From assembly GCA_963676835.2 (NCBI GenBank), contig CAXXFF010000002.1, forward strand, positions 384,001 to 448,000: a stretch of 64,000 bases of DNA, written 5' to 3'. Made by a program: the position numbers and the translations under genes. Below, one piece after another: positions 16,425 through 45,110 of this stretch. Numbering within the stretch: the first letter of the stretch is position 1; each line of letters opens with the position of its first letter. The stretch is from Marispirochaeta sp. Lineage in GTDB: Bacteria > Spirochaetota > Spirochaetia > JC444 > Marispirochaetaceae. Under the pieces are notes generated by a model. The model did no database searches. It was not told the origin of the DNA and saw only the letters and a program-made list of their open reading frames with translations.

Positions 16425-17720
16425 TTACGCCTCTTTGCTGCCGGCATCAAGGGTTTTGGGCAGCACCAGATTCAGAATAATTCCCACAAGGGTAGCCAGA
16501 GCAACATCGGCAAGTTCAAAATTCAGTCCTTCAGAAATGGGGAAGAACACTTTTCCACCGCCGATACCGATAACCAGAATTACTGAAGTAATGGTCAGGT
16601 TCCGCTTACAGGTGTAGTCAACGCCGCTTTCCACCACGGTACGAATACCGGCAGAAGCAATAATTCCGAAGAGCATCATACTGATTCCACCCATAACAGG
16701 GGTAGGAATGGTCTGAATAAGCGCTCCCACGGGCTGAAAGAAGGAAAGGACCAGGGCAATAACAGCAGCGCCGCCGATAACCCATACGGAATAAACCCGG
16801 CTGATAGCCATGGCACCGATATTTTCTCCGTAGGTGGTGTTGGGTGGTCCACCGAAAAGGGCCGCCAGAGCGGTTGCCGCACCATCACCTGCCAGCGTAC
16901 GGTGAATACCGGGATCTTTGTAGAAATCGCGGCCTACAACCTTGCTGACAACCATGGTGTCCCCCAGGTGTTCTGCAATGGTTGCGAAAGAGACCAGCAG
17001 GAAGGTCAGAATCGGAACAAAACTGAACTTGGGTATGGCGAACTTTGCAATTCCCAGTAAGGGAGCATTTACCACCGGAGCAAAGTCCACGATTTTGAAG
17101 GAGGGAACAAAGCTTCCCATAATCAGGGTGAAAATATATCCGCCGGCAATTCCGATAAGAATTGGAATAACCGTAAAGAATCCCCGCAGTACAATTGCAG
17201 AGATAATAGCGATTCCAAGGGTTACCGCAGCAATAATAACAAAGGAGCCGTTATAGCCGTTACCGGCATCCGCAAAGGGATACATAGCCATATTCATTGC
17301 AACCGGAGCAAGCTTCAGTCCGATTACAATAATGACACTTCCGATAACCACCGGAGGAAGCATCCGGTCCAGCCAGCCGATACCAATGCGGCTGATAATA
17401 AATGCAACCAGCAGATAGAAGAGTCCGACACAGAAAGCGGCTCCCAGGGCGTACTCAACTCCGAAGGTTGCAGAAACTGCAGTCAGAGGGACAATGTAGG
17501 CGAAAGAGGAACCAAGATAGGTAGGGACTTTTCCGCCGGTTATAAGAATATAGAGCAGCGTTCCGATACCGGAGGTAAAAAGAGCAGTAGCAGGACTCAG
17601 CCCGGTAAGCAGGGGAACCAGTACGGTGGCACTGAACATGGCAAAAACATGCTGAAAACTCAGGGGAATCCATTTGGAAAGTGGGGGACGATCATTCACA
17701 TCATAGACCGGTGACGACAT
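16425..17720 (-). CDS. uraA: Uracil permease, NCS2/NAT family
   Basis: QHVFAMF, YLGSSFAY, EHLGD, PNTTYGEN signature; start re-called to ATG 17720. Confidence 0.9.
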   Translation of the reverse strand: MSSPVYDVNDRPPLSKWIPLSFQHVFAMFSATVLVPLLTGLSPATALFTSGIGTLLYILITGGKVPTYLGSSFAYIVPLTAVSATFGVEYALGAAFCVGLFYLLVAFIISRIGIGWLDRMLPPVVIGSVIIVIGLKLAPVAMNMAMYPFADAGNGYNGSFVIIAAVTLGIAIISAIVLRGFFTVIPILIGIAGGYIFTLIMGSFVPSFKIVDFAPVVNAPLLGIAKFAIPKFSFVPILTFLLVSFATIAEHLGDTMVVSKVVGRDFYKDPGIHRTLAGDGAATALAALFGGPPNTTYGENIGAMAISRVYSVWVIGGAAVIALVLSFFQPVGALIQTIPTPVMGGISMMLFGIIASAGIRTVVESGVDYTCKRNLTITSVILVIGIGGGKVFFPISEGLNFELADVALATLVGIILNLVLPKTLDAGSKEA

Positions 17721-17907
17721 GTAACACTCCTTCTGCAAGGGCGTTTCGGACCGGGCATAATAACAGCACCCCTGCTCTTCGTTTGGATGATTATATACCT
17801 GATTATTTTAATAAAAGCAAGTTAACCCCTCTGGAGAGAATGGAGTAGATTATCCTCTCCAGCTGCCTTATAATGAAAGCACGATAATCAATACACCGGA
17901 GCACACT

Positions 17908-19479
17908 ATGCTATCCACCCGGGAAGAGGCCCTCTCTCAGCTCGTTCGGACCAGCAGCCTCATATCCGAAGAATTTCAATTCCGTACTCTTATTTCCCGT
18001 CTTGTGGAACAGGCGCAGGATGTGACTCAGTCAGACCTGTCCGCCCTCTATCTGTTTCAGGATCCGGAAGCAAAGCGGAGCTCCCTGAAACTGGCCTATA
18101 AACGGGGCCGCTACCCAATTACCGGAACCCTTGCTGCGTCAAATGAAGTTGCCGATTTTGTACAGGACTGCGGAGAGGCGGTAATCCTTACCGAACGCAA
18201 ACCCAGCCCCTTCATAGGGCTGCTTCTCCACGAAGAGATGAAAAGCGGCGTGGCTGTTCCCATTAAAACCGCCAAAGGGCGCATCGGCATTCTCTATCTC
18301 AACTCCAGGCAGGCCAACTTCTACAGCAGTATCCGCTTCAGTTTCATTGAAAGCTTTACCCGTCTTGCGGGGGGAATGCTGCATAACGCCAGACTCTTCC
18401 AGGAGACCCGTGAATACCTGCAGCGCATAGAAGAGATGGAACGCTATCAGGAAAGCATCTTCTCATCCATGACAAACCTGCTGATAACCACCGACGATGC
18501 CGGAACAATCCACTACTTCAACAAGGCAGCCGCAGAACGGATGCAGCTGACAGAAAAGGATCTGGGCAGGGATCTGGGCGATTTCTTCAGTAAAAAGATA
18601 GGCAGAAAGGTTATCAACGCCCTGAATGCCAGTCAGGAGAGCGGTAAAGAGGTTCTGGGTATAGAAGGGATATACCGGGGCGCAGAGAAGGAGATGGACT
18701 TCTCTCTGAATGTATCTCCACTGCAGGGGAAACGGGGCCGACACGAAGGACTTACCCTGCTGTTTACTGACCAGACCAGTGAACAGGAACTGAAGGCCAG
18801 CATGGAGGTAGCCAAAGAGGAGCGGCGGGTTATCAAGGATATGTTCGCCAGGTACATGTCCAACGATGTTGTGAGCGAACTGATGAACACCCCGGATCTG
18901 GTCAAACCCGGAGGGGATCAGAAACGGGCAACCCTCTTTTTTGCGGATATTGTGGGATACACCGCCTTTTCCGAAGGCAAGGAAGCTGCCTACATAATCG
19001 AACTGTTGAATGAATTCTTCTCTGAAGCCGTGGAGGTGGTTCTCCGCAATAAAGGCTACATAGACAAGTTCATCGGTGACTGTATTATGGCCGCCTGGGG
19101 CGTCCCTCTTTCTTCAGAAAAAGAGGATGCTATCCGGGCGGTGAGTACTGCCGTGGAAATCCAGAGGATGGTGCGGGACAAAAACCGTCGCTTCTTTACC
19201 GGAAAGGCCAAGAATCTGAAACTTGCCATCGGCATGAATACCGGCCCCCTGGTTGCAGGAAATCTCGGATCAAGCCAGCGGATGGACTATACTGTCATCG
19301 GAGATACCGTTAACCTTGCCGCCAGACTTGAAGGTGTTGCCGCTGCCAACGAAATTATCATAACCCAGGACACCATGGACCTCATTGACGGTGAGTTCAA
19401 GGTTCAGAAACGAAACCCGGTACAGGTTAAAGGCAAAGCCAAACCTATTCAGATATACAACGTTATCGATTTTCGCTGA
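17908..19479 (+). CDS. GAF-PAS class III adenylate cyclase
   Basis: FADIVGYT, DKFIGDCIMA (Lys), RMDYTVIGDTVNLAARLE (Asp), i.e. ATP-selecting residues; N-terminal GAF and PAS. Confidence 0.9.
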   Translation: MLSTREEALSQLVRTSSLISEEFQFRTLISRLVEQAQDVTQSDLSALYLFQDPEAKRSSLKLAYKRGRYPITGTLAASNEVADFVQDCGEAVILTERKPSPFIGLLLHEEMKSGVAVPIKTAKGRIGILYLNSRQANFYSSIRFSFIESFTRLAGGMLHNARLFQETREYLQRIEEMERYQESIFSSMTNLLITTDDAGTIHYFNKAAAERMQLTEKDLGRDLGDFFSKKIGRKVINALNASQESGKEVLGIEGIYRGAEKEMDFSLNVSPLQGKRGRHEGLTLLFTDQTSEQELKASMEVAKEERRVIKDMFARYMSNDVVSELMNTPDLVKPGGDQKRATLFFADIVGYTAFSEGKEAAYIIELLNEFFSEAVEVVLRNKGYIDKFIGDCIMAAWGVPLSSEKEDAIRAVSTAVEIQRMVRDKNRRFFTGKAKNLKLAIGMNTGPLVAGNLGSSQRMDYTVIGDTVNLAARLEGVAAANEIIITQDTMDLIDGEFKVQKRNPVQVKGKAKPIQIYNVIDFR

Positions 19480-26456: not shown

Positions 26457-27164
26457 ATGAAAATACGCACCATGATCTCCCTGGCAGTTTCCATTATTCT
26501 TTTCTGTCTGTCCGTCCTTCTTCTGCTGAAGATTAACCCTTTCGCCTGGAATCTTCCGGATCTGTCCATTATTAAAACAGAGAAAACCTCCGCCCGGGAC
26601 ATACTCCTCAAAGAGGCCCGCACCGTCTACAGGCTCAATACGGTGGAACTGGTATATAAATGCGTATTTCCCTACGATTATCTGCCGGAAAACCCGGACT
26701 GGCAGGCACTGTTTTACAACGAAGCTGTGGGTCAACTTTCAGCGGAAGAAAAAGAACTGATGGAGTTTTACCGCTTCTGCCGCAGCCTTAATATCGATCC
26801 TGTTTCACGGGATCATTCCTTTGCAGTAGTAACGGTTATAGTAAAAGCAGGATTCGACCTGGAAGATTATCCTTTACCGGAGAAGATTGTCACCGAGGGA
26901 ACCCGGGTTGAGTTTACCCTTCCCTCACCTGCGGTAACAGAGATCATCATACATGACCCGGGAGAATCGGATTACCCCTATCCCGGCATGGAAATAAGCC
27001 CGGAAAACTGGAAAACACTGACTGAGTTTATTAAAACCGGCGTTGATGACATTGTCAGGGAAACGGGCCTGCTGGAAAAAGCCGCCGCAAAGGGAGAAGA
27101 ACTCTTCAGCCGTCTGGCTGCTCCCGGCGGCTTTTCGGATATTCGTTTCAGCTATTTGGAATGA
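26457..27164 (+). CDS. DUF4230-like protein (second copy)
   Basis: N-terminal TM; VKAGFDL, TLPSP, LLEKAAAK; same GFSDIRF C-terminus as neighbour; start re-called to ATG 26457. Confidence 0.65.
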   Translation: MKIRTMISLAVSIILFCLSVLLLLKINPFAWNLPDLSIIKTEKTSARDILLKEARTVYRLNTVELVYKCVFPYDYLPENPDWQALFYNEAVGQLSAEEKELMEFYRFCRSLNIDPVSRDHSFAVVTVIVKAGFDLEDYPLPEKIVTEGTRVEFTLPSPAVTEIIIHDPGESDYPYPGMEISPENWKTLTEFIKTGVDDIVRETGLLEKAAAKGEELFSRLAAPGGFSDIRFSYLE

Positions 27165-29512
27165 CGCAGAAGGATCTGTTCAGCGGCTTTGCTGAATACA
27201 CCGAAAGCATCTTCGAGGCTCATCAAATTCAGGGCACAGGCATCGCTTTTTTCGTCTCTCGCTGAGGCTTCAAGTTCCGCAGCACGGTTGCCGAGCCTGC
27301 GGGCCATAAGATTCCAGGAGCTGCCTTTTATGGAATGGGCATCCTTACACACCGTATCAAAGTCCTCTTTTCTCAGGGCCTCTTTCATTTGGAGAATCTG
27401 CTTCTCAACCTTGGGAAGAAAGCCTTCAATAACACTGATAACTACAGCAGTATCTCCCATGAAGGTTTCAACAGCTTCATCAAAATTAAAGACCTCCGGA
27501 TCAATCTCCACCGGAGCTTCCTCCTGGTGAAAACTTTCACTGTCCCTGCGGGCGACCATACTTCCCATGGCCCATTTATCCAGCATAGGCATGAGATCAT
27601 TCTTTTTAAAAGGCTTGGTGAGGAAATCATCCATTCCCACATCAAGACATTTTTCCTGTTCACCTTTGATAGCCGACGCGGTTACCGCAATAATGGGAAC
27701 TTCGATCCCCTCTTTCCGGATAGCCTTTGTCGCCTCATAGCCGTTCATCTCGGGCATCTGCACATCCATGAAGATCAGCTCAAAATGCTCCTTCTTCGCC
27801 GCTTCCAGGGCTTCCCTTCCGTTATTGGCAATGCGGACGGTATAACCGTTGTTCTCCAGGATGGTCTTGAACAGGGTCTGGTTAACCTGGTGGTCTTCGG
27901 CTACCAGAATTGTACCCTTTTCAATGGTGAGCAGTGAGTCGACCTCTTCAAGAAAATCAATATCCTCAACACTTTCCAGCTCTTCCTCTTCATTGATCAG
28001 CTTGAAGAGAAGTTCAAAAAGCTGGTTCTTCTTGATAGGCTTGTTCAGATATCCGTCAAACCATTTGAGAAGCTTCATCTTGGCTTCTTCACCGCTGCGT
28101 CCGGCGGGACTCATGAGCAGCCGCCGCACGGTTTTAATACGATCGTCGGCATTTATCTCACTCACCAGCTGCCAGCCATCCATACCGGGCATCATCTGAT
28201 CAACCAGCACAACATTAAAAGGACGCTGCTCTTCCGCCCGCTGGCGCATAAGCTCAAGGGCTTCTGCTCCTCCGGGAACCTGATCAACCAGGCATCCCCA
28301 GCCTTTCAGGTAGGAGGTGAGAATTTTCCGGGATGTATCATTATCATCACATACAAGAGCCCGGCTTCCTTCAAAAAATCCACCGGTAAGATTTCGGTAG
28401 AGACTTTCCTCGTTCTGCTTCGGCAGACGGCAGGTAAACCAGAATATTGAGCCCTTGCCGACTTCACTCTCAACGCCGATCTCCCCGTCCATCATATGCA
28501 CCAGGTTACGGGATATGGAAAGACCGAGACCGGTTCCTCCGTACTTGCGGGTAGTAGAGGAATCCACCTGGGAAAAAACCTTGAACAGACGATCTCGTTT
28601 ATCCTCGGGAATACCGATGCCGGTATCGCGGACCTCAAACTTTAACTCAACAGCAGATTCATCTTCCCTTTCCAGCGAGACAACCACAACAATCTCACCT
28701 TCATGGGTAAACTTCACAGCATTATTGAACAGGTTGACCACAATCTGGCGCAGCCGCACCGGATCTCCTTTTAAGAGATGGGGAACTTCCGGCTTGAAGA
28801 AAACAGCAACCTCAAGGCCTTTTTTATGGGCTTCCATGGAGACCAGTTTTACGGAATCTTCCACCAGGTCATTGAGATCGAAATCAATGGATTCCAGCTT
28901 CAGATGCCCCGCCTCGATCTTGGAAAAATCAAGAATATCGTTTATCAGACTCTGAAGGACATCGGCGGAATACTGAATCTGGGCGGCATACTCAATCTGC
29001 TCCGCATCCAGTGCGGTATCCAGAAGCAGCTCGGACATGCCGGTAATGGTGTGAATAGGAGTACGTATCTCATGGCTCATATTTGCCAGGAAATCGGATT
29101 TTGTCTGGGCGGCCTTGCGTACCTCTTCGTTCTCCTCTTTAAGCCGGAGGGCATCCATTTTCTGGCTGGAGACCTCGGTAATTGAAGCCAGTGGAACAGT
29201 CCCGTCACCGGAAAGATCATCAATGAGAATCCACTCAAGACGGCACCAGCCGACGGTTCCGTCTTTCTGCAGATAGGGCAGTTCGAGAATACTCTCTTTG
29301 CCGGGGTTCTGCATAAACTCATCAAAGCTGCGCATCAGTTTCTGTGCATCCGCGGGGGAAAAACAGGCCCCGAGGGGTTCCCCCGGTTGAACAGGACCGC
29401 CTCCCCGCATGGCGGTAAAAGCCGAGTTGGCTTCCTGAATACCCATATGGCTGTCCAGGATAACGAGCCCTGTGGAGAGATGGTTAAAGAGTGCCTTATA
29501 TACAGTTTTCAT
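27152..29512 (-). CDS. Cytoplasmic hybrid histidine kinase PAS-HisKA-HATPase-REC-REC-Hpt
   Basis: FLANMSHEIRTP, DTGIGI, GGTGLGL, two receiver domains, Hpt AHSIKGSS. Confidence 0.95.
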   Translation of the reverse strand: MKTVYKALFNHLSTGLVILDSHMGIQEANSAFTAMRGGGPVQPGEPLGACFSPADAQKLMRSFDEFMQNPGKESILELPYLQKDGTVGWCRLEWILIDDLSGDGTVPLASITEVSSQKMDALRLKEENEEVRKAAQTKSDFLANMSHEIRTPIHTITGMSELLLDTALDAEQIEYAAQIQYSADVLQSLINDILDFSKIEAGHLKLESIDFDLNDLVEDSVKLVSMEAHKKGLEVAVFFKPEVPHLLKGDPVRLRQIVVNLFNNAVKFTHEGEIVVVVSLEREDESAVELKFEVRDTGIGIPEDKRDRLFKVFSQVDSSTTRKYGGTGLGLSISRNLVHMMDGEIGVESEVGKGSIFWFTCRLPKQNEESLYRNLTGGFFEGSRALVCDDNDTSRKILTSYLKGWGCLVDQVPGGAEALELMRQRAEEQRPFNVVLVDQMMPGMDGWQLVSEINADDRIKTVRRLLMSPAGRSGEEAKMKLLKWFDGYLNKPIKKNQLFELLFKLINEEEELESVEDIDFLEEVDSLLTIEKGTILVAEDHQVNQTLFKTILENNGYTVRIANNGREALEAAKKEHFELIFMDVQMPEMNGYEATKAIRKEGIEVPIIAVTASAIKGEQEKCLDVGMDDFLTKPFKKNDLMPMLDKWAMGSMVARRDSESFHQEEAPVEIDPEVFNFDEAVETFMGDTAVVISVIEGFLPKVEKQILQMKEALRKEDFDTVCKDAHSIKGSSWNLMARRLGNRAAELEASARDEKSDACALNLMSLEDAFGVFSKAAEQILLRHSK

Positions 29513-29553: not shown

Positions 29554-30810
29554 TTAAAATGTGGCGCCCAGTACTTCCGCCGCTTTCCGCAGCAGCTTTT
29601 CCGGTTTCAGCGGTTTCCGCAGATAGGTACGAACCCCATACTCCTGAGCCTTAAGAACTGTCTCTTTTTTGGTAAGAGCCGAGAAGATAATTACCGGAAC
29701 ATCAATATTCCTGGACCGCATATCCTGTAGCACCTCAAAACCGTTCATTGTTGGCATCATCAGATCCAGAAAAACCAGATCGTAGTGGCTCTCGTCAAGA
29801 GTATCCACAAACTCTTTCCCATCGGGAAACTGACTGATAGTCCAGCCGGTACTTTTAAAAACCGTTGCTATCAGCGTGCGGATAACCATATCGTCATCCA
29901 CCACAGCCACGGTTGCTTTTCCTTTAAGAATATCTATCATCTGGCCCATGGCACCTTCCCCGGCAAAACGCATGGACATGCTTCCTTCGGTATCACCGCC
30001 GCCTTCAGCATGATTTCCGATTATCCTCTCACGGACCACATCATCGTGGGCAAAGGCATCCGGCTTAAGGCCGATGAGGTCATCCATAGCTTTTTCGAGA
30101 CTGTCCGTCAGGCCGATCTGCTTGAGATCCTCGTTGGAAGCCAGAACCCGGGCGACCTCTTTGGACGAACTGAGAACCTTTATAAAATGGGGATTCCCCT
30201 GGGCCTCGTTAAGGATAGTTTCAAAAAGAAGAACCAGTTTTTCCGCATCCCCCACTCCTAACTCAAGTCCGGCCAGCATTATAAGCACCTTTGGTATTTT
30301 CTGATTGTACAGGGCCAGGAGTTCACGGATTTTATATTTGAGCAGGACGATCTTCTCGGTGTTGAGCCCCTGGGCAACCTCAATAAAAAGGATGTCTTCA
30401 TTAAAATGGGCTTCGATTATAGACGGTGTGGGATCCACCGTAAGGGTAACCCCCAGAAATTCGGACAAAGTATCCAGCATGGCATCAAGCTTCAGCGGCT
30501 TGGTAAAAACCTTTTTTACCCCGAACTTTGCAAGCTCCACTATATGCTGACTGCTCAGCTTGTTTGCCATAAGAATAACCGGGACATTTACCGTATTGGG
30601 ATTCCGCATTTTTTCCTGCAGAACCTCCTGAGAGCTTTTCCGGGAGAGCATGTAGTCCATTATTATAAGATCCGGCAATTCGCTCCGCATCTTCAGCATT
30701 CCATCAAGACCATTACCGGACTGAATTACTTCAATACCGTGGGTAACCAGTTTCTTGCTGAGATAGTCGCGAACCAGCGGAGATTCTTCAATAATAAGAA
30801 TTTTTTTCAT
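29554..30810 (-). CDS. Response regulator with two receiver domains and an unassigned central domain
   Basis: N-terminal REC (IIEES..IMD..KP) and C-terminal REC (VVDDD..FLDLMMP..KP). Confidence 0.88.
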   Translation of the reverse strand: MKKILIIEESPLVRDYLSKKLVTHGIEVIQSGNGLDGMLKMRSELPDLIIMDYMLSRKSSQEVLQEKMRNPNTVNVPVILMANKLSSQHIVELAKFGVKKVFTKPLKLDAMLDTLSEFLGVTLTVDPTPSIIEAHFNEDILFIEVAQGLNTEKIVLLKYKIRELLALYNQKIPKVLIMLAGLELGVGDAEKLVLLFETILNEAQGNPHFIKVLSSSKEVARVLASNEDLKQIGLTDSLEKAMDDLIGLKPDAFAHDDVVRERIIGNHAEGGGDTEGSMSMRFAGEGAMGQMIDILKGKATVAVVDDDMVIRTLIATVFKSTGWTISQFPDGKEFVDTLDESHYDLVFLDLMMPTMNGFEVLQDMRSRNIDVPVIIFSALTKKETVLKAQEYGVRTYLRKPLKPEKLLRKAAEVLGATF

Positions 30811-30883: not shown

Positions 30884-32919
30884 CTACCTGAGAATGGAAC
30901 TGAGAATTTCCCTGGTCACATTATAGAGAGGAGGAATTCCTTCGGAGGGATGAAGCCGCGCACTGAGAGAACTGCGGTGTCCCAGGGGAAGGTCGGATAC
31001 ATAATAGAGAAAACGGGTCGGGATCTGCCGGGGGATTACATTCAGCTCCATTGCTTCCAGTATCTGACGGTAATAGAATATACCCTCCATCTCGAGGCCG
31101 ATACAGTTCCAGATATGCCGGTAGAAACTGAGCATGCTTCTGTTCTGCATCAGGGTTCCAGCCACTGTCAGAATAGGCCCGGTGTGAACCGATGATCCGG
31201 CGGACATCTCTTTCAGCCTGGCCGAAAGACCCGTATCGGGATCATCCAGGGGATAGAAGCGGTCGCTGGTCTGCTCAATAAAAGCATCCGGAACCAGAAT
31301 ATCTCCCCGTTTACCAACCAGAGATCCCGCTTTTCCCAGGACGTTGATGCTGGCCAGATTGCGTCCAAAGAGCAGAATAAGGCTGCGGATAATATCCTCC
31401 GCCTGTTCTCCAAAGGCGTAATCGATATTGACGATGAGGCTTCGCTCCGGGGAGGCTGAACAGTGAACAGCAGGATCGAGCCCCTGGGGATCGAGTTTCC
31501 CCGTATCAATGAGCTGAACCTGTATGCCTGTGGAGGCGGTCTCCTTGAGCCTTAAAATACCGCATGAAACCTCATCGCAGCGGCGCAGCCCGGGATTTGC
31601 CTCCCAGAATGAGGGCCCCAGGGCATACATAAGATCCGACGGATTTTTCCACTCACCTTTCATAAACGGGTGACTGGTATCATCCGCCCAGTCCAGTATC
31701 ATATCCTGGTAAGTACGGAAATCGGGGCTGATACAGTTTACCACCGAATGATCATTGGAACTTATAATGTGTACCGGAATGTCCGGATCAAGATCGGCTG
31801 GTTCAAATCCGGTCAGACTGCCGGCGGCATCTGCAACCTGGTGGGTCCAGTTCTGGGACCGGTGCAGATGAAAGGTGGGAACATGACGGCGGAAATCAAT
31901 ATTTATACTCTCCCGGTGCCGGACAATCTCACTTAAGGTCTGGAGGACCCTTCCCGGCCAGAGGGACTGCAGCCCCGCAATTTCCGCCCGGGAGAAATCG
32001 AGCCTTTGCAGCAGAACATCCACCTCTTCCGGAGACTCTTCCTTCCCCTTCGACCGCAGCCGCTCTTCCAGGGCCGCTATCGATTTGGGGTCATGCAGCC
32101 GGCTGCGGATTTTGCCTGCCTCCACCGCGTAGAGGCAGAGACAGGTGATAATATCCACCATATCCGACATGCCGGAACGCAGCAGAACCATGCTCTTCCC
32201 GGGCAGCATCTCCCAGATATCCCGCCGCCGGGCCGCCGACTCCACCGAAGCAAAGAGGCTCTCCGGCTCGACGAACTCAGTAGGCAGGTCATCGGTGAGA
32301 AGATAGGTATGGTTCCGGGAAACATTCTCCGGAAGCCGCCGTACCGCGTACAACAGGGCTCCGAAATCTATTTCATAGGAGTTCAGCTGGGGATGCAGTG
32401 CCGGACGAAGGGCTCTGTAATGGGGCAGCAGTCCACGGATATCCAGAAAGCCGCGGTTTACCGCCCTGGTTATTTCCGCGGAAAAGCTGGTGAACTCGGC
32501 AAAAATACCCTGCCTGTCCTGAAGAATACTCCCCAGGGACTGGGCAAAGGCCCGGGATGAGTGAAGGAGCCGCAGGAAGCTGTCTGCAGAAACAACGTAG
32601 CAGATGGTCTCTTCTTCGGCGACGAAATCAAAAAGATAGGCTTCATTGAGAGCACCCCCCGCTCACCGAAATAGGAGCCCGCCGGAATAAGGTTTGTTCT
32701 CAGCTCCGATCCTTCTGGATCATAAACACCTACACTGCCACGCCCGACAAAAAAGAATTCGGGATGCCGGGAGGGCCCGTGGGAGAGGACCGTTTCTCCC
32801 TGAACATAAACCCGGCGGCTCATCTGTGCAGCCAGAGAACTCCGCTCCCCGGCGCTGAGAAACCGGAATGGGATGGTATGCTCAAAAAGGGGCGTCAGAT
32901 CCGCCAGAACCCCACCCAT
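30884..32919 (-). pseudogene. Frameshifted gene: cNMP-binding domain fused to DUF6909-like/AMP-nucleosidase-like domain (~678 aa if restored)
   Basis: ORF 32470..32919 encodes the first part of a cNMP domain up to GSYFGERGVL; the -1 frame continues NEAYLFDFVAEEETICYVVSADSFLRLL... without a stop into ORF 30884..32353. Confidence 0.85.
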
Positions 32920-32920
32920 A

Positions 32921-33439
32921 CTACTCTTCTTTATAGTATTCCCGGAGCTCTTCCGCGGTGGCGGATACCGGGTGACTGATCAGCAGGGAATCAGCCTTGA
33001 TTTCTGTGGCATTCATCATGGCAGCTATGCGCTGGATAGAAGAGAGGAGCAGGGTCTGTTCCCATATTTCGAGACCGTTGAATGATTCAATAAAAGTATC
33101 ATGAAGCATTGAGGGCTTGTTGATAAGCTGTGCATGACCCGCTTCGGTGAGCTGGACATACATTTTCCGCTTGTCCTCTACCCCCCTGATTCTGGTTACC
33201 AGTCCTCTGGCCACCAGTCTGTCTACAATACTGGTAACCGTCGCATGGCTGAGTGAAATATTTTTGGCGAGATCACCGGTGGTCAGTACATCCCGGTCGG
33301 CAATTTCCTGCATTACAATAAGCTGAGGCCCCGTAAGGCCATAGGTTTTAGCGAGCTTTTTGGAATGAATGTCTATAGCCCTGACGATCTGCCTGATCGT
33401 TACAAGAACCTCCTCGCTTACATCTTTCTCTCTTGCCAT
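32921..33439 (-). CDS. MarR family regulator, EctR/CosR-like
   Basis: RQIVRAIDIHSKKL..GLTGPQL, SLSHATVTSIVDRL, DKR, WEQTLLLSSIQRIAAMM. Confidence 0.88.
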   Translation of the reverse strand: MAREKDVSEEVLVTIRQIVRAIDIHSKKLAKTYGLTGPQLIVMQEIADRDVLTTGDLAKNISLSHATVTSIVDRLVARGLVTRIRGVEDKRKMYVQLTEAGHAQLINKPSMLHDTFIESFNGLEIWEQTLLLSSIQRIAAMMNATEIKADSLLISHPVSATAEELREYYKEE

Positions 33440-33485: not shown

Positions 33486-33974
33486 TCAGTATTTGTATTT
33501 AAAGGTCCTCAACAGATCCCGGCGGGCCTGTTTGTCTTCATCTCCCTCAATGCCTTTGGGAGAGAAACCGTCGATAACACCGATAATTCCCCGGCCCTGA
33601 TCTGTGCCGGCGCTTATTATCTGCAGGGGGTTGGCAGTGGCGGCAAAAACCCGGGCCACCTCCTGACACTGCTTTATCTGATTGAGCACATTAATAGGGA
33701 AGGCATTACGGATAATAAGATAAAAGGTATGCCCGGCGGCCACCTTTTCGGCACAGGCTGCCGCCTGGGAAACAAGGACGTTATCGTTACCTTCGGTTCG
33801 GATGAGGCAGGGCCCGGAGGCTTCGCAGAAGGCAAGCCCGAATTCAATTCCCGGTACCGAGCTGATCATGATTTCACTCAGATCCTCAACGGTTTTAATA
33901 AAATGGGACTGGCCGACAATAATATTACAGCCCTCTTCCCACTCAAGCTGGTGAACATTCAGTACCGGGATCAT
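33486..33974 (-). CDS. DUF355 'adenosine-specific kinase' family protein
   Basis: GQSHFIKTVEDL, FCEASGPCL, AFPINVLN, ATANP, GVIDG motifs. Confidence 0.9.
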   Translation of the reverse strand: MIPVLNVHQLEWEEGCNIIVGQSHFIKTVEDLSEIMISSVPGIEFGLAFCEASGPCLIRTEGNDNVLVSQAAACAEKVAAGHTFYLIIRNAFPINVLNQIKQCQEVARVFAATANPLQIISAGTDQGRGIIGVIDGFSPKGIEGDEDKQARRDLLRTFKYKY

Positions 33975-40882: not shown

Positions 40883-42268
40883 ATGATTGAAAAATTGAAA
40901 AACTCTTACTGCCTGGTCCTTGGCGGCGGCGGCGCCCGGGGTGCCTATGAAATCGGCGTATGGAAGGCCCTTCGTGAAATGGATATAGAGATTCATGCGG
41001 TGGCAGGAACCTCCGTGGGAGCCCTTAATGCGGCCTTCGTTGCCCAGAATGATTTTGAAGCCGCGGAAGAGATGTACCTCAATATTGACATCCACAAGGT
41101 GGTCAACATCCCCGATGAGTTTCTCCATCAGGGAAAAATCAGCCGTGACCTTTCCACAATGAGCCGCCTCAGCGGCTACCTGCTGGAACACCGCGGACTG
41201 GACACCTCTCCCTTAAAAGCCCTTATCGACTCTCACCTGAATGAAGAAGCTATCCGGAGTTCCGGAGTGGATTTCGCCCTGGTAACCTATAATCTCTCCA
41301 CCATGAAACCCCTGCACTGTTTCCTCGAAGATATTCCAGCCGGCCGGCTGAGCGATTTCCTCTTTGCCAGTGCTGCCCACCCCCTGTTCGGGGCAGCAAA
41401 GATAGATGAAGCAAAGCTCACTGACGGGGGAGTTACGGACAATATCCCCTACAACCTCATGAAGGAACGGGGTTACCGCCGCATTATCGCCGTTGATCTT
41501 TCCGGTATGGGATGGACCAGAAAACCGAGAACAGCAAACAGTCAGACCGTATATATAAAGAACTCCCTCAAACTGGAAGGAGTTATGGACTTTACCCCCG
41601 AGTGTTCTGCCACCGCGCTCAAACTCGGGTATCTGGACACCCTGCGCAGCTTTGAAAAAATCGAAGGTGTCCGTTACTTCATCAAAGCGGATACGTCACC
41701 CCTGAAACAGCTGAGCCGGCAGCTCGAAATGCCGGCCAACAGGGCATTGATAGAAGAAATCGCCGGAAAAATCAGAGGCGGCAAAAACCGCGAAAAGAGA
41801 AATAACGGAAAAAAAGCTGACCGCAGCCTGATTACCCCTCCCCCGCTCAAGCAGATACTCCCCGCAGAGACGGCACACCACCGTTTTCCCGGCCTGGCAC
41901 TCCTCGAATGTTCCGCTGACTGTTTAAACATACCCAGAGACCCCCTCTACTCAGTGGAAGAACTTCTGGATCTGGTGAAGGAAGGATTCAACCGGCTCCA
42001 GGCGGAGCCCTTCAATGAAAAACGGGGATTCCGGGGAATTATCCGCCGCCTGCGGCGGGAACTGAAGAAACTGAACCGGAAAGATCTGTTTCAGCTCTCC
42101 TCTGCCCGCTACGCCTCAGCTCTTAGCACGGTACTGGGAGGAAAAGACCCTTATCTCGCGGTAAAGCTCCTCAGCCCCTTCTTTCCGGAACTTCCGGCAG
42201 CCCGGCTTATGTATACTCTGTTAAATTCACCCCGCAGCAGTTTTTCTATTGACCAGTCGGATCGCTGA
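40883..42268 (+). CDS. Patatin-like phospholipase
   Basis: GGGGARG, GTSVG, DGG motifs. Confidence 0.92.
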   Translation: MIEKLKNSYCLVLGGGGARGAYEIGVWKALREMDIEIHAVAGTSVGALNAAFVAQNDFEAAEEMYLNIDIHKVVNIPDEFLHQGKISRDLSTMSRLSGYLLEHRGLDTSPLKALIDSHLNEEAIRSSGVDFALVTYNLSTMKPLHCFLEDIPAGRLSDFLFASAAHPLFGAAKIDEAKLTDGGVTDNIPYNLMKERGYRRIIAVDLSGMGWTRKPRTANSQTVYIKNSLKLEGVMDFTPECSATALKLGYLDTLRSFEKIEGVRYFIKADTSPLKQLSRQLEMPANRALIEEIAGKIRGGKNREKRNNGKKADRSLITPPPLKQILPAETAHHRFPGLALLECSADCLNIPRDPLYSVEELLDLVKEGFNRLQAEPFNEKRGFRGIIRRLRRELKKLNRKDLFQLSSARYASALSTVLGGKDPYLAVKLLSPFFPELPAARLMYTLLNSPRSSFSIDQSDR

Positions 42269-42317
42269 TTCTACAATTGAAAGGGTAAATAAAAACATTT
42301 TTTTCGAGGAGTTACGA

Positions 42318-43433
42318 ATGAAAAAAGCACTGGTGCTTATGCTCTCTCTCGTCCTTCTGTTCTCTCTTGCCGCAGGACTTACTTCCTGTTCAAAGAAAAC
42401 CGAAACCGCAGGAGAACCTGCCAAGGCTGCAGAGTCTGCAAAAGCAGACCTCAAAGTCGGAATGGTTACCGATGCCGGAACCATCGATGACAAATCCTTC
42501 AACCAGGGAACCTGGGAAGGAATCCTGAAAGCCAAAGATGATATGGGTATTGAAGTGAAATACCTGAAACCCTCCGGAACAACCGAAGCGGACTACCTGA
42601 AAGAGATCGGCAACCTCTATGACGCCGGCTACAAGTTCATTGTAACCCCGGGATTCAAGTTTGAGACCAGTATCTATCAGGCTCAGACCAAATACCCCGA
42701 TGCAAAATTTGTCATTCTCGATGGTGTTCCCCATCCCGGAGACTATTCTGTAGACGTAAAATCAAATACGGTATCAATCTTCTTCGCAGAACATGAATCA
42801 GGCTTTATGGCCGGTGTAGCCGCTGCCCTGCAGCTTCGCGAAGGCGAATTCGGTTTTATCGGAGGAATGGAGATTCCTGCAGTACAGAAGTTCAACTGGG
42901 GCTTCCAGCAGGGTGTTGCCTATGCCAACGACCACTACAGCACCAAGGTAAACATTTCTCCCGAGAATGTTGTCTACCAGGGAACCTTCAATGATGTAGC
43001 CGCAGGACAGCAGCTTGCCGCACAGATGTACGACAAGGGAGTAAAGGCGATCTTTACCGCAGCCGGCGGAGTCGGTGTGGGAGCAATCAACGAAGCAAAA
43101 ACCCGTGCCAAAGCCGGAGAGGAAGTCTGGATTATCGGTGTTGACGTAGACCAGTATGCCGAAGGTATCTATGAAGGTGAAAAATCCATCATCCTCACTT
43201 CTGCAATGAAGAGAATCGATCAGGCTGCCTACGACATGATCAAGGCGGAACTTGATGGTACCTTCCCCGGTGGAGATGTGCTTACCTTTGACGCAACCAA
43301 TGACGGTATCGGTATTCCAGAAACCAACCCGAACCTGCCCATGCAGCTGGAAGCCAAGGTTGCAGAGATTTTCGGCGACCTGAAGGCCGGAAAGATCACG
43401 GTATCATCCGAACAGGGATCTTTAATCAAATAG
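42318..43433 (+). CDS. BMP family nucleoside ABC transporter substrate-binding lipoprotein
   Basis: Lipobox GLTSC; DDKSFNQGTWEG, AAGGVG.G, IGVDVDQ, LTSAMK. Confidence 0.93.
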   Translation: MKKALVLMLSLVLLFSLAAGLTSCSKKTETAGEPAKAAESAKADLKVGMVTDAGTIDDKSFNQGTWEGILKAKDDMGIEVKYLKPSGTTEADYLKEIGNLYDAGYKFIVTPGFKFETSIYQAQTKYPDAKFVILDGVPHPGDYSVDVKSNTVSIFFAEHESGFMAGVAAALQLREGEFGFIGGMEIPAVQKFNWGFQQGVAYANDHYSTKVNISPENVVYQGTFNDVAAGQQLAAQMYDKGVKAIFTAAGGVGVGAINEAKTRAKAGEEVWIIGVDVDQYAEGIYEGEKSIILTSAMKRIDQAAYDMIKAELDGTFPGGDVLTFDATNDGIGIPETNPNLPMQLEAKVAEIFGDLKAGKITVSSEQGSLIK

Positions 43434-43447
43434 TTGAGTTTATTATC

Positions 43448-43483
43448 AGGGGCATACCGGAATCCCGGAGTGCCCCTTTTTTT
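43448..43483 (+). terminator. Intra-operon terminator/stabilising hairpin after the BMP gene
   Basis: AGGGGCA..CCGG..CCGG..TGCCCCT followed by a T-run. Confidence 0.75.
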
Positions 43484-43577
43484 AAATTTTGCAAATTGTA
43501 ACTATGTACCTTTTAACCCGCAGAACTGTCTGTTTGCCTGTTCTTCAGAAAAATCCACTGCCGGAGGCCTGTAGCTT

Positions 43578-45110
43578 ATGGAAAATGTTGTAGAAATGAT
43601 CAACATCCGCAAAGAGTTTCCCGGAATTGTCGCCAACGACAATATTTCGATTAATCTGAAAAAAGGCGAGATTCTTGCCCTTCTGGGAGAAAACGGAGCG
43701 GGAAAATCCACCCTTATGAGTATTCTCTTCGGGCTCTACCGTCCGGATAACGGAAGCATCCGTATTCGGGGTAAAGAGGAACATATAAGCAACCCCACCT
43801 ATGCCAATGATCTGGGTATCGGTATGGTCCACCAGCACTTCAAGCTGGTCCACAACTTTACCATCACCGAAAATATTGTTCTTGGAATGGAACCGAAAAA
43901 GGGCTTAAGCCTGAACCTGGGCGAAGCATCCAAACGTATCCGGGAGCTCTCGGAACATTACGGCCTGAATGTTGACCCCGACGCTATTACCGAGGATGTT
44001 TCCGTTGGTATGCAGCAGCGGGTGGAGATTCTGAAGATGCTCTACCGGGATGCGGAGGTTCTGATTTTTGACGAGCCGACCTCGGTGCTCACTCCCCAGG
44101 AGATTCAGGATCTGATGCAGATAATGCGCAACCTGATACAGGAAGGCAAATCCATAATCCTGATTACCCACAAACTCAAGGAAATCAAGGCAATAGCAGA
44201 CCGCTGTACCGTAATCCGCCGGGGAAAAGTTATTGGAACTGTGGATGTCAAGGGCACAAGCGAAGCTGAAATGGCCAGGATGATGGTCGGCCGGGAAGTC
44301 TCCTTTTCGGTGGATAAAGAAGCGAAGGAAGCGGGAAGAACCATTCTTCAGGTCGAGAACCTTTCGGTTATCAACAGCCGGAAGATTCAGGGGCTGAAGG
44401 ATTTCTCTCTGGAAGTTAAGGCCGGAGAGATTGTCGGCCTTGCAGGAGTAGACGGAAACGGCCAGTCCGAGCTGGTGGAAGCAATTACCGGCCTGGTACC
44501 GTCCTCGGGGGGACGTATCCTCCTGAACGGAGAAGATATTACCGGCAACTCCATTTCTGAACGGATCAGCGCTGGGATTGCCCATATTCCCGAAGACCGG
44601 CAGAAACGGGGTCTGGTACTGGATTACACCGTGGAAGACAACATGATCCTTGAAACCCACGGATCAGAGCCTTATTCCCGGCATGGATTTCTCCAGCGGG
44701 AACCAATTCGTAAACATGCGGAAAAGCTTATTGAGGACTTTGACGTACGGGCCGGACAGGGAGGTGCAACCGCAGCCAGGGCACTTTCCGGCGGAAACCA
44801 GCAGAAGGCAATTGTAGGCCGGGAGATCGATCTTAATCCTGATCTGCTTATCGCGGTTCAGCCTACCCGGGGCCTGGATGTCGGGTCCATCGAATACATT
44901 CACAAACGGCTGGTGGAACAGAGGGACAAGGGCAAAGGTGTACTTCTGGTATCCCTGGAACTAGATGAAATTCTTGATCTTTCCGACCGGATCGCCATTA
45001 TCAGCCATGGACAGCTTGTAGGCACCGTAAAGGCGGAAGATACCAACGAAAATGAAGTCGGCCTTATGATGGCCGGAGTAGAACAGGGAGAAAGCAGAAA
45101 TGAAGCTTGA
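43578..45110 (+). CDS. Nucleoside/sugar (CUT2) ABC transporter ATPase
   Basis: GENGAGKST, SVGMQQRVE, LSGGNQQK, QPTRGLD. Confidence 0.95.
   Translation: MENVVEMINIRKEFPGIVANDNISINLKKGEILALLGENGAGKSTLMSILFGLYRPDNGSIRIRGKEEHISNPTYANDLGIGMVHQHFKLVHNFTITENIVLGMEPKKGLSLNLGEASKRIRELSEHYGLNVDPDAITEDVSVGMQQRVEILKMLYRDAEVLIFDEPTSVLTPQEIQDLMQIMRNLIQEGKSIILITHKLKEIKAIADRCTVIRRGKVIGTVDVKGTSEAEMARMMVGREVSFSVDKEAKEAGRTILQVENLSVINSRKIQGLKDFSLEVKAGEIVGLAGVDGNGQSELVEAITGLVPSSGGRILLNGEDITGNSISERISAGIAHIPEDRQKRGLVLDYTVEDNMILETHGSEPYSRHGFLQREPIRKHAEKLIEDFDVRAGQGGATAARALSGGNQQKAIVGREIDLNPDLLIAVQPTRGLDVGSIEYIHKRLVEQRDKGKGVLLVSLELDEILDLSDRIAIISHGQLVGTVKAEDTNENEVGLMMAGVEQGESRNEA

Follow-up and report, generated by a model that had tools for sequence, protein, structure and literature searches.

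The gene at positions 30884..32919 (minus strand) of the 64,000-nucleotide stretch of Marispirochaeta sp. DNA that we analysed (the window) encodes a three-part protein of 678 residues, which we interpret, with moderate confidence, as a housekeeping enzyme that probably separates the base of a purine nucleotide or nucleoside from its sugar, hydrolysis being the likely reaction, and whose cyclic-nucleotide-binding (CNB) domain is likely unresponsive to cAMP or cGMP in this copy. Within this interpretation we hold base-sugar cleavage of some kind with good confidence; hydrolysis is mildly favored, phosphorolysis is a lesser possibility, and some other reaction is improbable. New here are a frameshift that is likely an artefact, a sensor pocket that takes three lineage-specific forms, and a middle domain that could substitute for a partner subunit.

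In the assembly, the gene is split between two open reading frames. Its ATG begins at 32919 and its stop occupies 30884-30886, giving a length of 2036 nt, or 679 codons minus one base, with the missing base near 32650, where the reading switches from one frame to the other. The motifs GETV, FFFVGRGSV and GSYFGERG all lie in the frame starting at 32919, and the frame ending at 30884 holds VAEEETICYVVSADSF, IDYAFGEQA, LGKAGSL, GDILVP, GPILTVAGT, IGLEMEG and LYYVSDLPL; every motif quoted in the earlier note on this DNA was therefore found in the two minus-strand frames. Pfam assigns PF00027 to the 5' piece (E 3.1e-6) and PF21850 (DUF6909) to the 3' piece (E 4.2e-123; 412 bits against a curated cut-off of 27, covering profile positions 1-534 of 535). 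A 30 kb Logan contig of run X1 (depth 12) covers the entire gene stretch and, across 2401 bases, differs from the window only in carrying one extra A behind 32650 (32650..32651). Inserting an X at the break yields a 678-residue protein with no internal stop, which is 90.1% identical to the intact ortholog of the same-genus genome G002 and 70.5-72.0% identical to four further copies from the genus, the gene being intact in 5/5 same-genus genomes. Since the X1 contig holds the missing base and the restored protein is stop-free and so close to the G002 copy, the split is likely an assembly error in a gene that is intact in the organism. The frames, the Pfam matches, the contig and the orthologs together uphold the earlier note on three points, namely that the two reading frames form one fused protein of about 678 residues, that its N-terminus is a CNB domain, and that the remainder belongs to DUF6909. 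We consider a recent pseudogene in the window's strain very unlikely: the frameshift is present in the assembly, and a single contig at depth 12 could come from a sister strain, but that contig is otherwise identical to the window, no second lesion is present and every motif is retained. If X1 is the source sample, which is possible, an assembly error would be favored over a second strain. A promoter and terminator scan gave chance-level results.

Intact fused homologs were looked for and found. Among 8000 scored candidates there are 536 homologs, and 114 of the 120 best ones listed combine PF00027 with PF21850 on a single chain. A single copy of the family occurs in 6/6 genomes of the same taxonomic family and in 11/41 genomes overall; across an even draw of 201 Spirochaetota genomes, some of them with bases withheld, it occurs in only 5, which argues against a place in core metabolism. 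A genome pattern scan (175 of 198 matches confirmed) returned at least 80 loci from Spirochaetota, Gemmatimonadota, Myxococcota and a few other groups, and atlas clusters extend DUF6909 to Bacteroidota and Chloroflexota. A profile search of 50% representatives recovered standalone forms of about 550 residues together with long forms, many of which have a degenerate CNB pocket. Two of the ten representatives that were looked up are named protist proteins, the eukaryotic members coming from Colponema vietnamica and Blepharisma stoltei. Further DUF6909 fusions involve a DFP C-terminal domain, NADAR, receiver and GAF domains (among P0184, P0178, P0174, P0147 and P0153, eukaryotic members included), with P0147 and P0153 being the REC- and GAF-fused versions. 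The CNB-DUF6909 gene is real and of ordinary distribution. No published description of DUF6909/PF21850 was found in a search of the openly available literature; as far as that search reaches, the family is uncharacterised, as had been supposed.

The structure predicted for the ortholog P0004, which is 72% identical to the window protein, is of high quality (pLDDT 93.2, pTM 0.91) and consists of a CNB fold (residues about 1-140; 32501..32919, minus strand), a middle domain (about 141-348; 31877..32500, minus strand) and a catalytic domain of nucleoside-phosphorylase-I (NP-I) fold (about 349-678; 30887..31876, minus strand). Residues 1-143 superpose on CNB-B of PKG II (5bv6) with Z 18.4 and rmsd 2.6 over 140 aligned residues. 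The NP-I part matches MTAN 6aym (VIA Z 18.9, rmsd 2.7, 205 aligned), UP 6k5g (Z 18.8, rmsd 3.3, 232 aligned), PNP 1odi (Z 18.5, rmsd 2.8, 214 aligned) and Amn 7uwq (Z 17.5, rmsd 3.5, 233 aligned), and Foldseek matches the model to MTAN, PNP and Amn at E about 1e-7. The proposal that the C-terminal region has a fold of the PNP/Amn type is thus well founded on the ortholog model. A special tie to Amn, also proposed, is suggested by motifs, but the scores do not single it out: the Z values of MTAN, UP and PNP are tied, with Amn close behind, so that no NP-I subfamily is singled out, and E-values from thin profiles are better for MTAN (4.7e-4) and DeoD (1.8e-3) than for Amn (0.05). An hhalign comparison of the family profile A1 with single-sequence Amn was spurious and was rejected. 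A PDB sequence search with the C-terminal piece gave no matches at E up to 10, a search with profile A1 gave CNB proteins only among the 60 matches listed, and the NCBIfam (TIGR) Amn model matched 0/7 family proteins at E up to 1. The organism's own genome holds MTAN-, PunA- and Udp-like genes, and no Amn was found in it; likewise, five entries and 61 genomes from the phylum to which genome G239 belongs yielded no full Amn gene above the cut-off.

Active-site residues were counted in 85 distant representatives, left from 87 of 150 that passed a length and motif filter after a non-member and a truncation were dropped. The E-M-E at 610-612 (31085..31093, minus strand; E612, M613 and E614 in P0004) corresponds to the ribose-binding D403-M404-E405 of Amn and is kept in 83, 85 and 85 of the 85, and D643 (30992..30994, minus strand; D645 in P0004) corresponds to the base-binding Amn D428, which we take to be a general acid, and is kept in 84. 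Q594 (P0004 numbering) is invariant in all 85. Both the (D/E)-M-E ribose motif and the base-binding Asp of the NP-I superfamily are therefore present and near-invariant, and the catalytic residues of the PNP/Amn type are kept; hhalign also aligns LEMEG with IDMES and VSDLPL with VSDKPL of Amn (E 0.0013). K530 (31331..31333, minus strand; K532 in P0004) takes the position that H305 has in E. coli Amn and is Lys in 84/85, and the Bacteroides Amn 1YBF has a Lys there too, with LGKCGG against LGKAG in DUF6909. N389 (31754..31756, minus strand; N391 in P0004), placed in the Amn N205 slot by eye and motif position, is Asn in 71/85.

PMC9584410 names N205, W383, M404, E405 and D428 as the base and sugar residues of Amn, and R381, K436, H188' and Y189' as its phosphate residues. 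The slot of the base-stacking W383 is usually Leu/Met in DUF6909 (Leu/Met/Ile at 592-593 by sequence register), and by the same register there is no conserved Arg/Lys in the slots of the four phosphate residues. The phosphorylase-Arg slot (529) is V, I, C or F, and never Arg, in 85/85, and position 394, the DeoD R24 slot by eye, is most commonly S/T/C/G/A. Accordingly, no cis phosphate-binding Arg was found in the 85 representatives at the slots of DeoD R24 and R87, presumably the cis phosphate-binding arginines of hexameric PNP. MTAN has a water-activating Glu in its first loop and an Arg before S-D; this pair was not found in DUF6909, where the first loop reads SSN(T/D)HS and position 641 is Tyr. 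From these residue patterns we take DUF6909 to be a putatively active enzyme that forms a separate subfamily within NP-I and is more likely to be a hydrolase. In the mechanism we propose, E612 (window numbering) would hold the ribose hydroxyls, D643 would protonate the leaving purine, and N389 and K530 would line the site of the nucleophile in the manner of AMP nucleosidases.

The middle domain is predicted confidently even when residues 138-350 are modeled alone (pLDDT 94.6), and it has no clear fold match. Foldseek returned none at E up to 0.001; STING was rejected as a match (E 0.5 or worse, TM-scores about 0.2 or less); in a wide structural search nothing but helices matched (best Z 5.0), which does not in itself make the fold new; and the domain profile gave one meaningless match in the PDB. 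H176, D185, Y191, R195, R233, R248, D253, D256, E267 and K270 are near-invariant (H176 in 79/83, R233 in 78/83), and R231 is also conserved. In a second-look search, 28 of 39 rows were NP-I chains, Amn, PNP and MTAP among them, aligned over their first ~95 residues with rmsd 3.2-4.5 and Z of only 2.1-3.8, many being near-identical UPs in a set preselected by Foldseek; UP 3c74 gave Z 3.8 and rmsd 3.5 over 82 residues. One Amn range, starting at model residue 47 against Amn 174, pairs D185/Y191/R195/L196 with Amn D175/F181/R185/L186 by eye. Profile tests of the domain against NP-I stayed within shuffled controls and were not significant: an internal-repeat test against the catalytic N-half gave E 0.27, and a comparison with the Amn N-half scored 10.1 against 6.7-17.5 for shuffles, the Amn profile having only five rows there. 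We tentatively suggest, with rather less than even confidence, that the middle domain is a vestigial partner subunit. Since the residues that hold the 5'-phosphate in Amn are unmatched, the basic residues H176, R195, R231, R233, R248 and K270 of the middle domain would likely take over the job done by the neighboring subunit in Amn, PNP and UP.

In DeoD and UP, a His and an Arg work in trans, and the same observations could be read as those of a nucleoside phosphorylase that depends on phosphate and forms a pseudo-dimer from a single chain, in which the middle domain supplies the partner's His and Arg and K530 helps to hold phosphate. The NP-I rows of the second-look search and the conservation of H176 and R233 are consistent with this, but those rows all fall below Z 4 and carry the redundancy and preselection described above, the cis arginines are absent from the DeoD R24 and R87 slots as placed by eye, and PunA- and Udp-like enzymes are already encoded in the genome; we consider such a phosphorylase rather unlikely and continue to favor a hydrolase.

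The ligand pocket of the CNB domain, G85-E86...Y95 (32636..32667, minus strand), spans the frame break and reads G85-E86-R-G-V-x-x-N-E-A-Y95 in the window and GERGVLLNEAY in the intact G002 copy. Relative to PKA-type domains, G85 and E86 correspond to the G-E, position 88 to the A202 slot and position 95 to the R209 slot, so that a Gly occupies the A202 slot and a Tyr the R209 slot, the latter in the window and in 5/5 other genus copies (6/6). According to PMC10959531, the phosphate-binding Arg of PKA CNB domains contacts the cyclic phosphate, and a Glu in the A202 position holds the 3' and 5' hydroxyls of the ribose and collides with a cyclic phosphate; the same source gives an engineered trypanosome PKA mutant 4 (GELELMYQTPRVA, Glu plus Arg) an inosine EC50 of 36 nM against 24 uM for cIMP. 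The window copy, with its Gly and Tyr, fits neither the canonical nor the Glu-type pocket. Across the 107 homologs aligned (of 120 listed, 13 partial or near-duplicate ones being left out), G85 is kept in 107, E86 in 106 and the phosphate-binding Arg in 95; 77 have Glu plus Arg, 15 Ala/Ser plus Arg, 12 no Arg and three another combination. The 79 pocket-typed genome loci (the 80 returned minus one without an ORF) comprise 35 with Glu plus Arg, 29 with a small residue plus Arg, six without Arg, two others and seven incomplete, and, of the 70 distant representatives that possess a CNB region, seven have Glu, 20 are canonical and 37 are without even the G-E.

In a quick tree of 72 rows built from the DUF6909 part alone, the 35 Glu-plus-Arg rows form one branch (SH-aLRT 94) and this pocket requires one change, where shuffling gives a mean of 24.4; the Tyr-type Marispirochaeta rows lie on a separate branch. 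Judged by pocket residues, the putative Glu-type pocket is thus that of one well-sampled spirochaete clade, and the family pocket comes in three predicted, lineage-specific forms: canonical, Glu-type and degenerate. The G-E-x-E...P-R pattern of the spirochaete clade is that of trypanosome PKA mutant 4, and by this analogy its CNB domains likely sense plain nucleosides. The sensor ligand would then depend on lineage, being a cyclic nucleotide where the pocket reads G-E-x-A/S...P-R and a nucleoside where it reads G-E-x-E...P-R, and in the genus Marispirochaeta it may be absent or of another kind.

The earlier note had proposed activation by cAMP, which the Tyr in the R209 slot speaks against for the window copy. 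A true cAMP- or cGMP-gated nucleosidase in this organism too would accord with the retained CNB fold and G85-E86 and with the eight class III cyclase domains of the genome, and the G-E-x-small...R pocket of 29/79 loci and 20/70 distant representatives makes cyclic-nucleotide binding probable for many relatives. However, the Arg that holds the cyclic phosphate (PMC10959531) is replaced in all six genus copies, the cyclase of the window lies 11 kb from the gene (class III adenylate/guanylate cyclase, 17908-19479, plus strand), and more than half of the distant representatives (37/70) lack even the G-E; we judge such gating unlikely here.

As a control, we took the 18 other CNB domains of the organism's own genome, 12 of which have G-E-x-A/S, together with 20 chosen Crp-sized matches from ten relatives, and found Glu at the slot in 3 of these 38. 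One of the three lies behind a uridine phosphorylase, and the surroundings of the other two (L245 and L248) contain no nucleoside gene out to about 2.5 kb. The first of the three is a Crp-like regulator of the organism's own genome, outside the window (L229; G000:C2 about 907850-908600, minus strand), directly behind a uridine-phosphorylase-like gene; its pocket is G-A-A-E without Arg, making it a candidate nucleoside-sensing regulator, and G002 has matches at the equivalent places. In E. coli K-12, yeiL (L241:4356-5015) lies between nupX-rihB and psuT-psuG-psuK and has a CNB pocket of Glu-plus-Arg type, GEIE...PR; YeiL was chosen from prior knowledge and is not an unbiased case.

A wider proposal, which we put forward as speculative and doubtful as a whole, is that DUF6909 is a new purine-nucleosidase branch built as a single-chain pseudo-dimer, whose CNB domain was retuned repeatedly, with one spirochaete clade gaining a nucleoside sensor by the Ala-to-Glu switch of trypanosomatid PKA and so reading its own substrate or product pool. 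If this is true, G-E-x-E would be a general sign of nucleoside-sensing bacterial CNB domains, including YeiL and the G-A-A-E Crp-like gene behind uridine phosphorylase.

The surroundings of the gene are stable within the genus. A MarR regulator (32921..33439, minus strand) ends 1 nt before the ATG of the fusion gene, and downstream follow a response regulator with two receiver domains (29554..30810, minus strand) and a hybrid histidine kinase (PAS-HisKA-HATPase-2 REC-Hpt; 27152..29512, minus strand); the order of marR, fusion gene, response regulator and kinase-sized ORF is kept in 5/5 genus relatives. Recurrent neighbors in other lineages are PheST, HAD, ProU, ParA, RF3 and two-component genes. 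In 19 loci (e.g., L025:4005-4955), the listed ones being Glu-type spirochaetes, pheT and the fusion gene are separated by a gene of ~320 residues, which gave no Pfam match in the three copies scanned. Two genes upstream in the window is a PF04008 'adenosine-specific kinase' gene (33486-33974, minus strand). In four genus relatives a glycine-betaine ABC operon, absent from this place in the organism's own genome, stands between the PF04008-sized ORF and marR, and at L086, L093 and L096 a PF04008-cluster gene is directly upstream of the DUF6909 fusion. A PnrA-like (Bmp) binding protein with an ABC ATPase (42249-45110, plus strand) and a xanthine/uracil permease (16425-17738, minus strand) lie 9-13 kb from the fusion gene, outside its operon. 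No purine operon was found among 44 neighbors of 15 standalone loci (15 of the 24 ORFs passing the standalone size filter).

A role in defence, raised in the earlier note, finds little in these surroundings. PADLOC gave no match on the DUF6909 part of 11 family proteins, with CNB matches to PycTIR in three, and only partial matches to generic domains among the neighbors. No family copies turned up in viral contigs or in 50,697 phage records, and 2 of 72,556 plasmid records carry the family, both being large non-mobilizable Persicobacter replicons. No cyclase adjoins the fusion gene among the flanking genes scanned. In the Cap17 preprint (10.1101/2023.01.24.525353), the clade is defined by tree position and defence neighborhood; no such association with defence systems was found in our neighbor samples. 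From the single copy, the fixed gene order, the lack of a defence-model match on the enzyme part and the lack of copies in the phage records searched, the CNB-DUF6909 protein looks like a housekeeping protein. An effector of the Cap17 or Detocs DtcC kind, depleting nucleotides against phages and working beside the two-component pair, would share the NP-I fold and would suit both the downstream response regulator and kinase and the REC- and GAF-fused versions, but the results just given and the recurrent neighbors of other lineages make it extremely improbable.

The housekeeping interpretation provides an assayable predicted function for a family with members in Spirochaetota, Gemmatimonadota, Myxococcota, Bacteroidota, Chloroflexota and protists (Colponema, Blepharisma). 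The authors of PMC10959531 describe trypanosome PKA as the first departure from cyclic-nucleotide binding and anticipate further CNB ligands outside trypanosomatids. Natural variants with three pocket types on one enzyme would make sensor specificity readable as enzyme activity, and they caution that not every PF00027 fusion is cAMP-regulated.

Compared with known systems, Amn (E. coli 1T8S, Klebsiella 7UWQ, Bacteroides 1YBF) shares with DUF6909 the NP-I fold (Z 17.5 for 7uwq), the N205, M404, E405 and D428 slots, the SD-x-P motif and, in 1YBF, the Lys at K530. It differs in W383, R381, K436, H188' and Y189', which are unmatched at about 14% identity, and in its N-terminal domain, which the DUF6909 protein lacks, adding CNB and middle domains instead. 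MTAN (6AYM, 1NC3) has the best, though tied, Z of 18.9 and has in common the E-M-E, the catalytic Asp and the absence of phosphate arginines; however, DUF6909 has no first-loop Glu and has Tyr where MTAN has Arg before S-D, and the genome has its own MTAN. DeoD and UP share the fold (Z 18.5-18.8), and the middle domain weakly matches their N-terminal half, whereas the DUF6909 protein lacks their cis phosphate arginines and is three times their length. Cap17 (CBASS) and DtcC (Detocs) have the sensor-plus-PNP-fold layout in common with it, and PycTIR (Pycsar, 8jsk) the N-terminal CNB domain (Z 18.3); the DUF6909 protein differs from all three in having no defence context, no paired cyclase and a vertical, single-copy pattern, and its middle domain of ~210 residues is absent from their descriptions. 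The regulatory subunit of trypanosomatid PKA, with its nucleoside-binding CNB domains (PMC10959531), has in common with 77 of the 107 DUF6909-family homologs the Glu at the A202 slot, and these homologs keep the Arg as mutant 4 does; the window copy differs in having Gly and Tyr at the two slots and a single CNB domain, which is joined to an enzyme and does not control a kinase.
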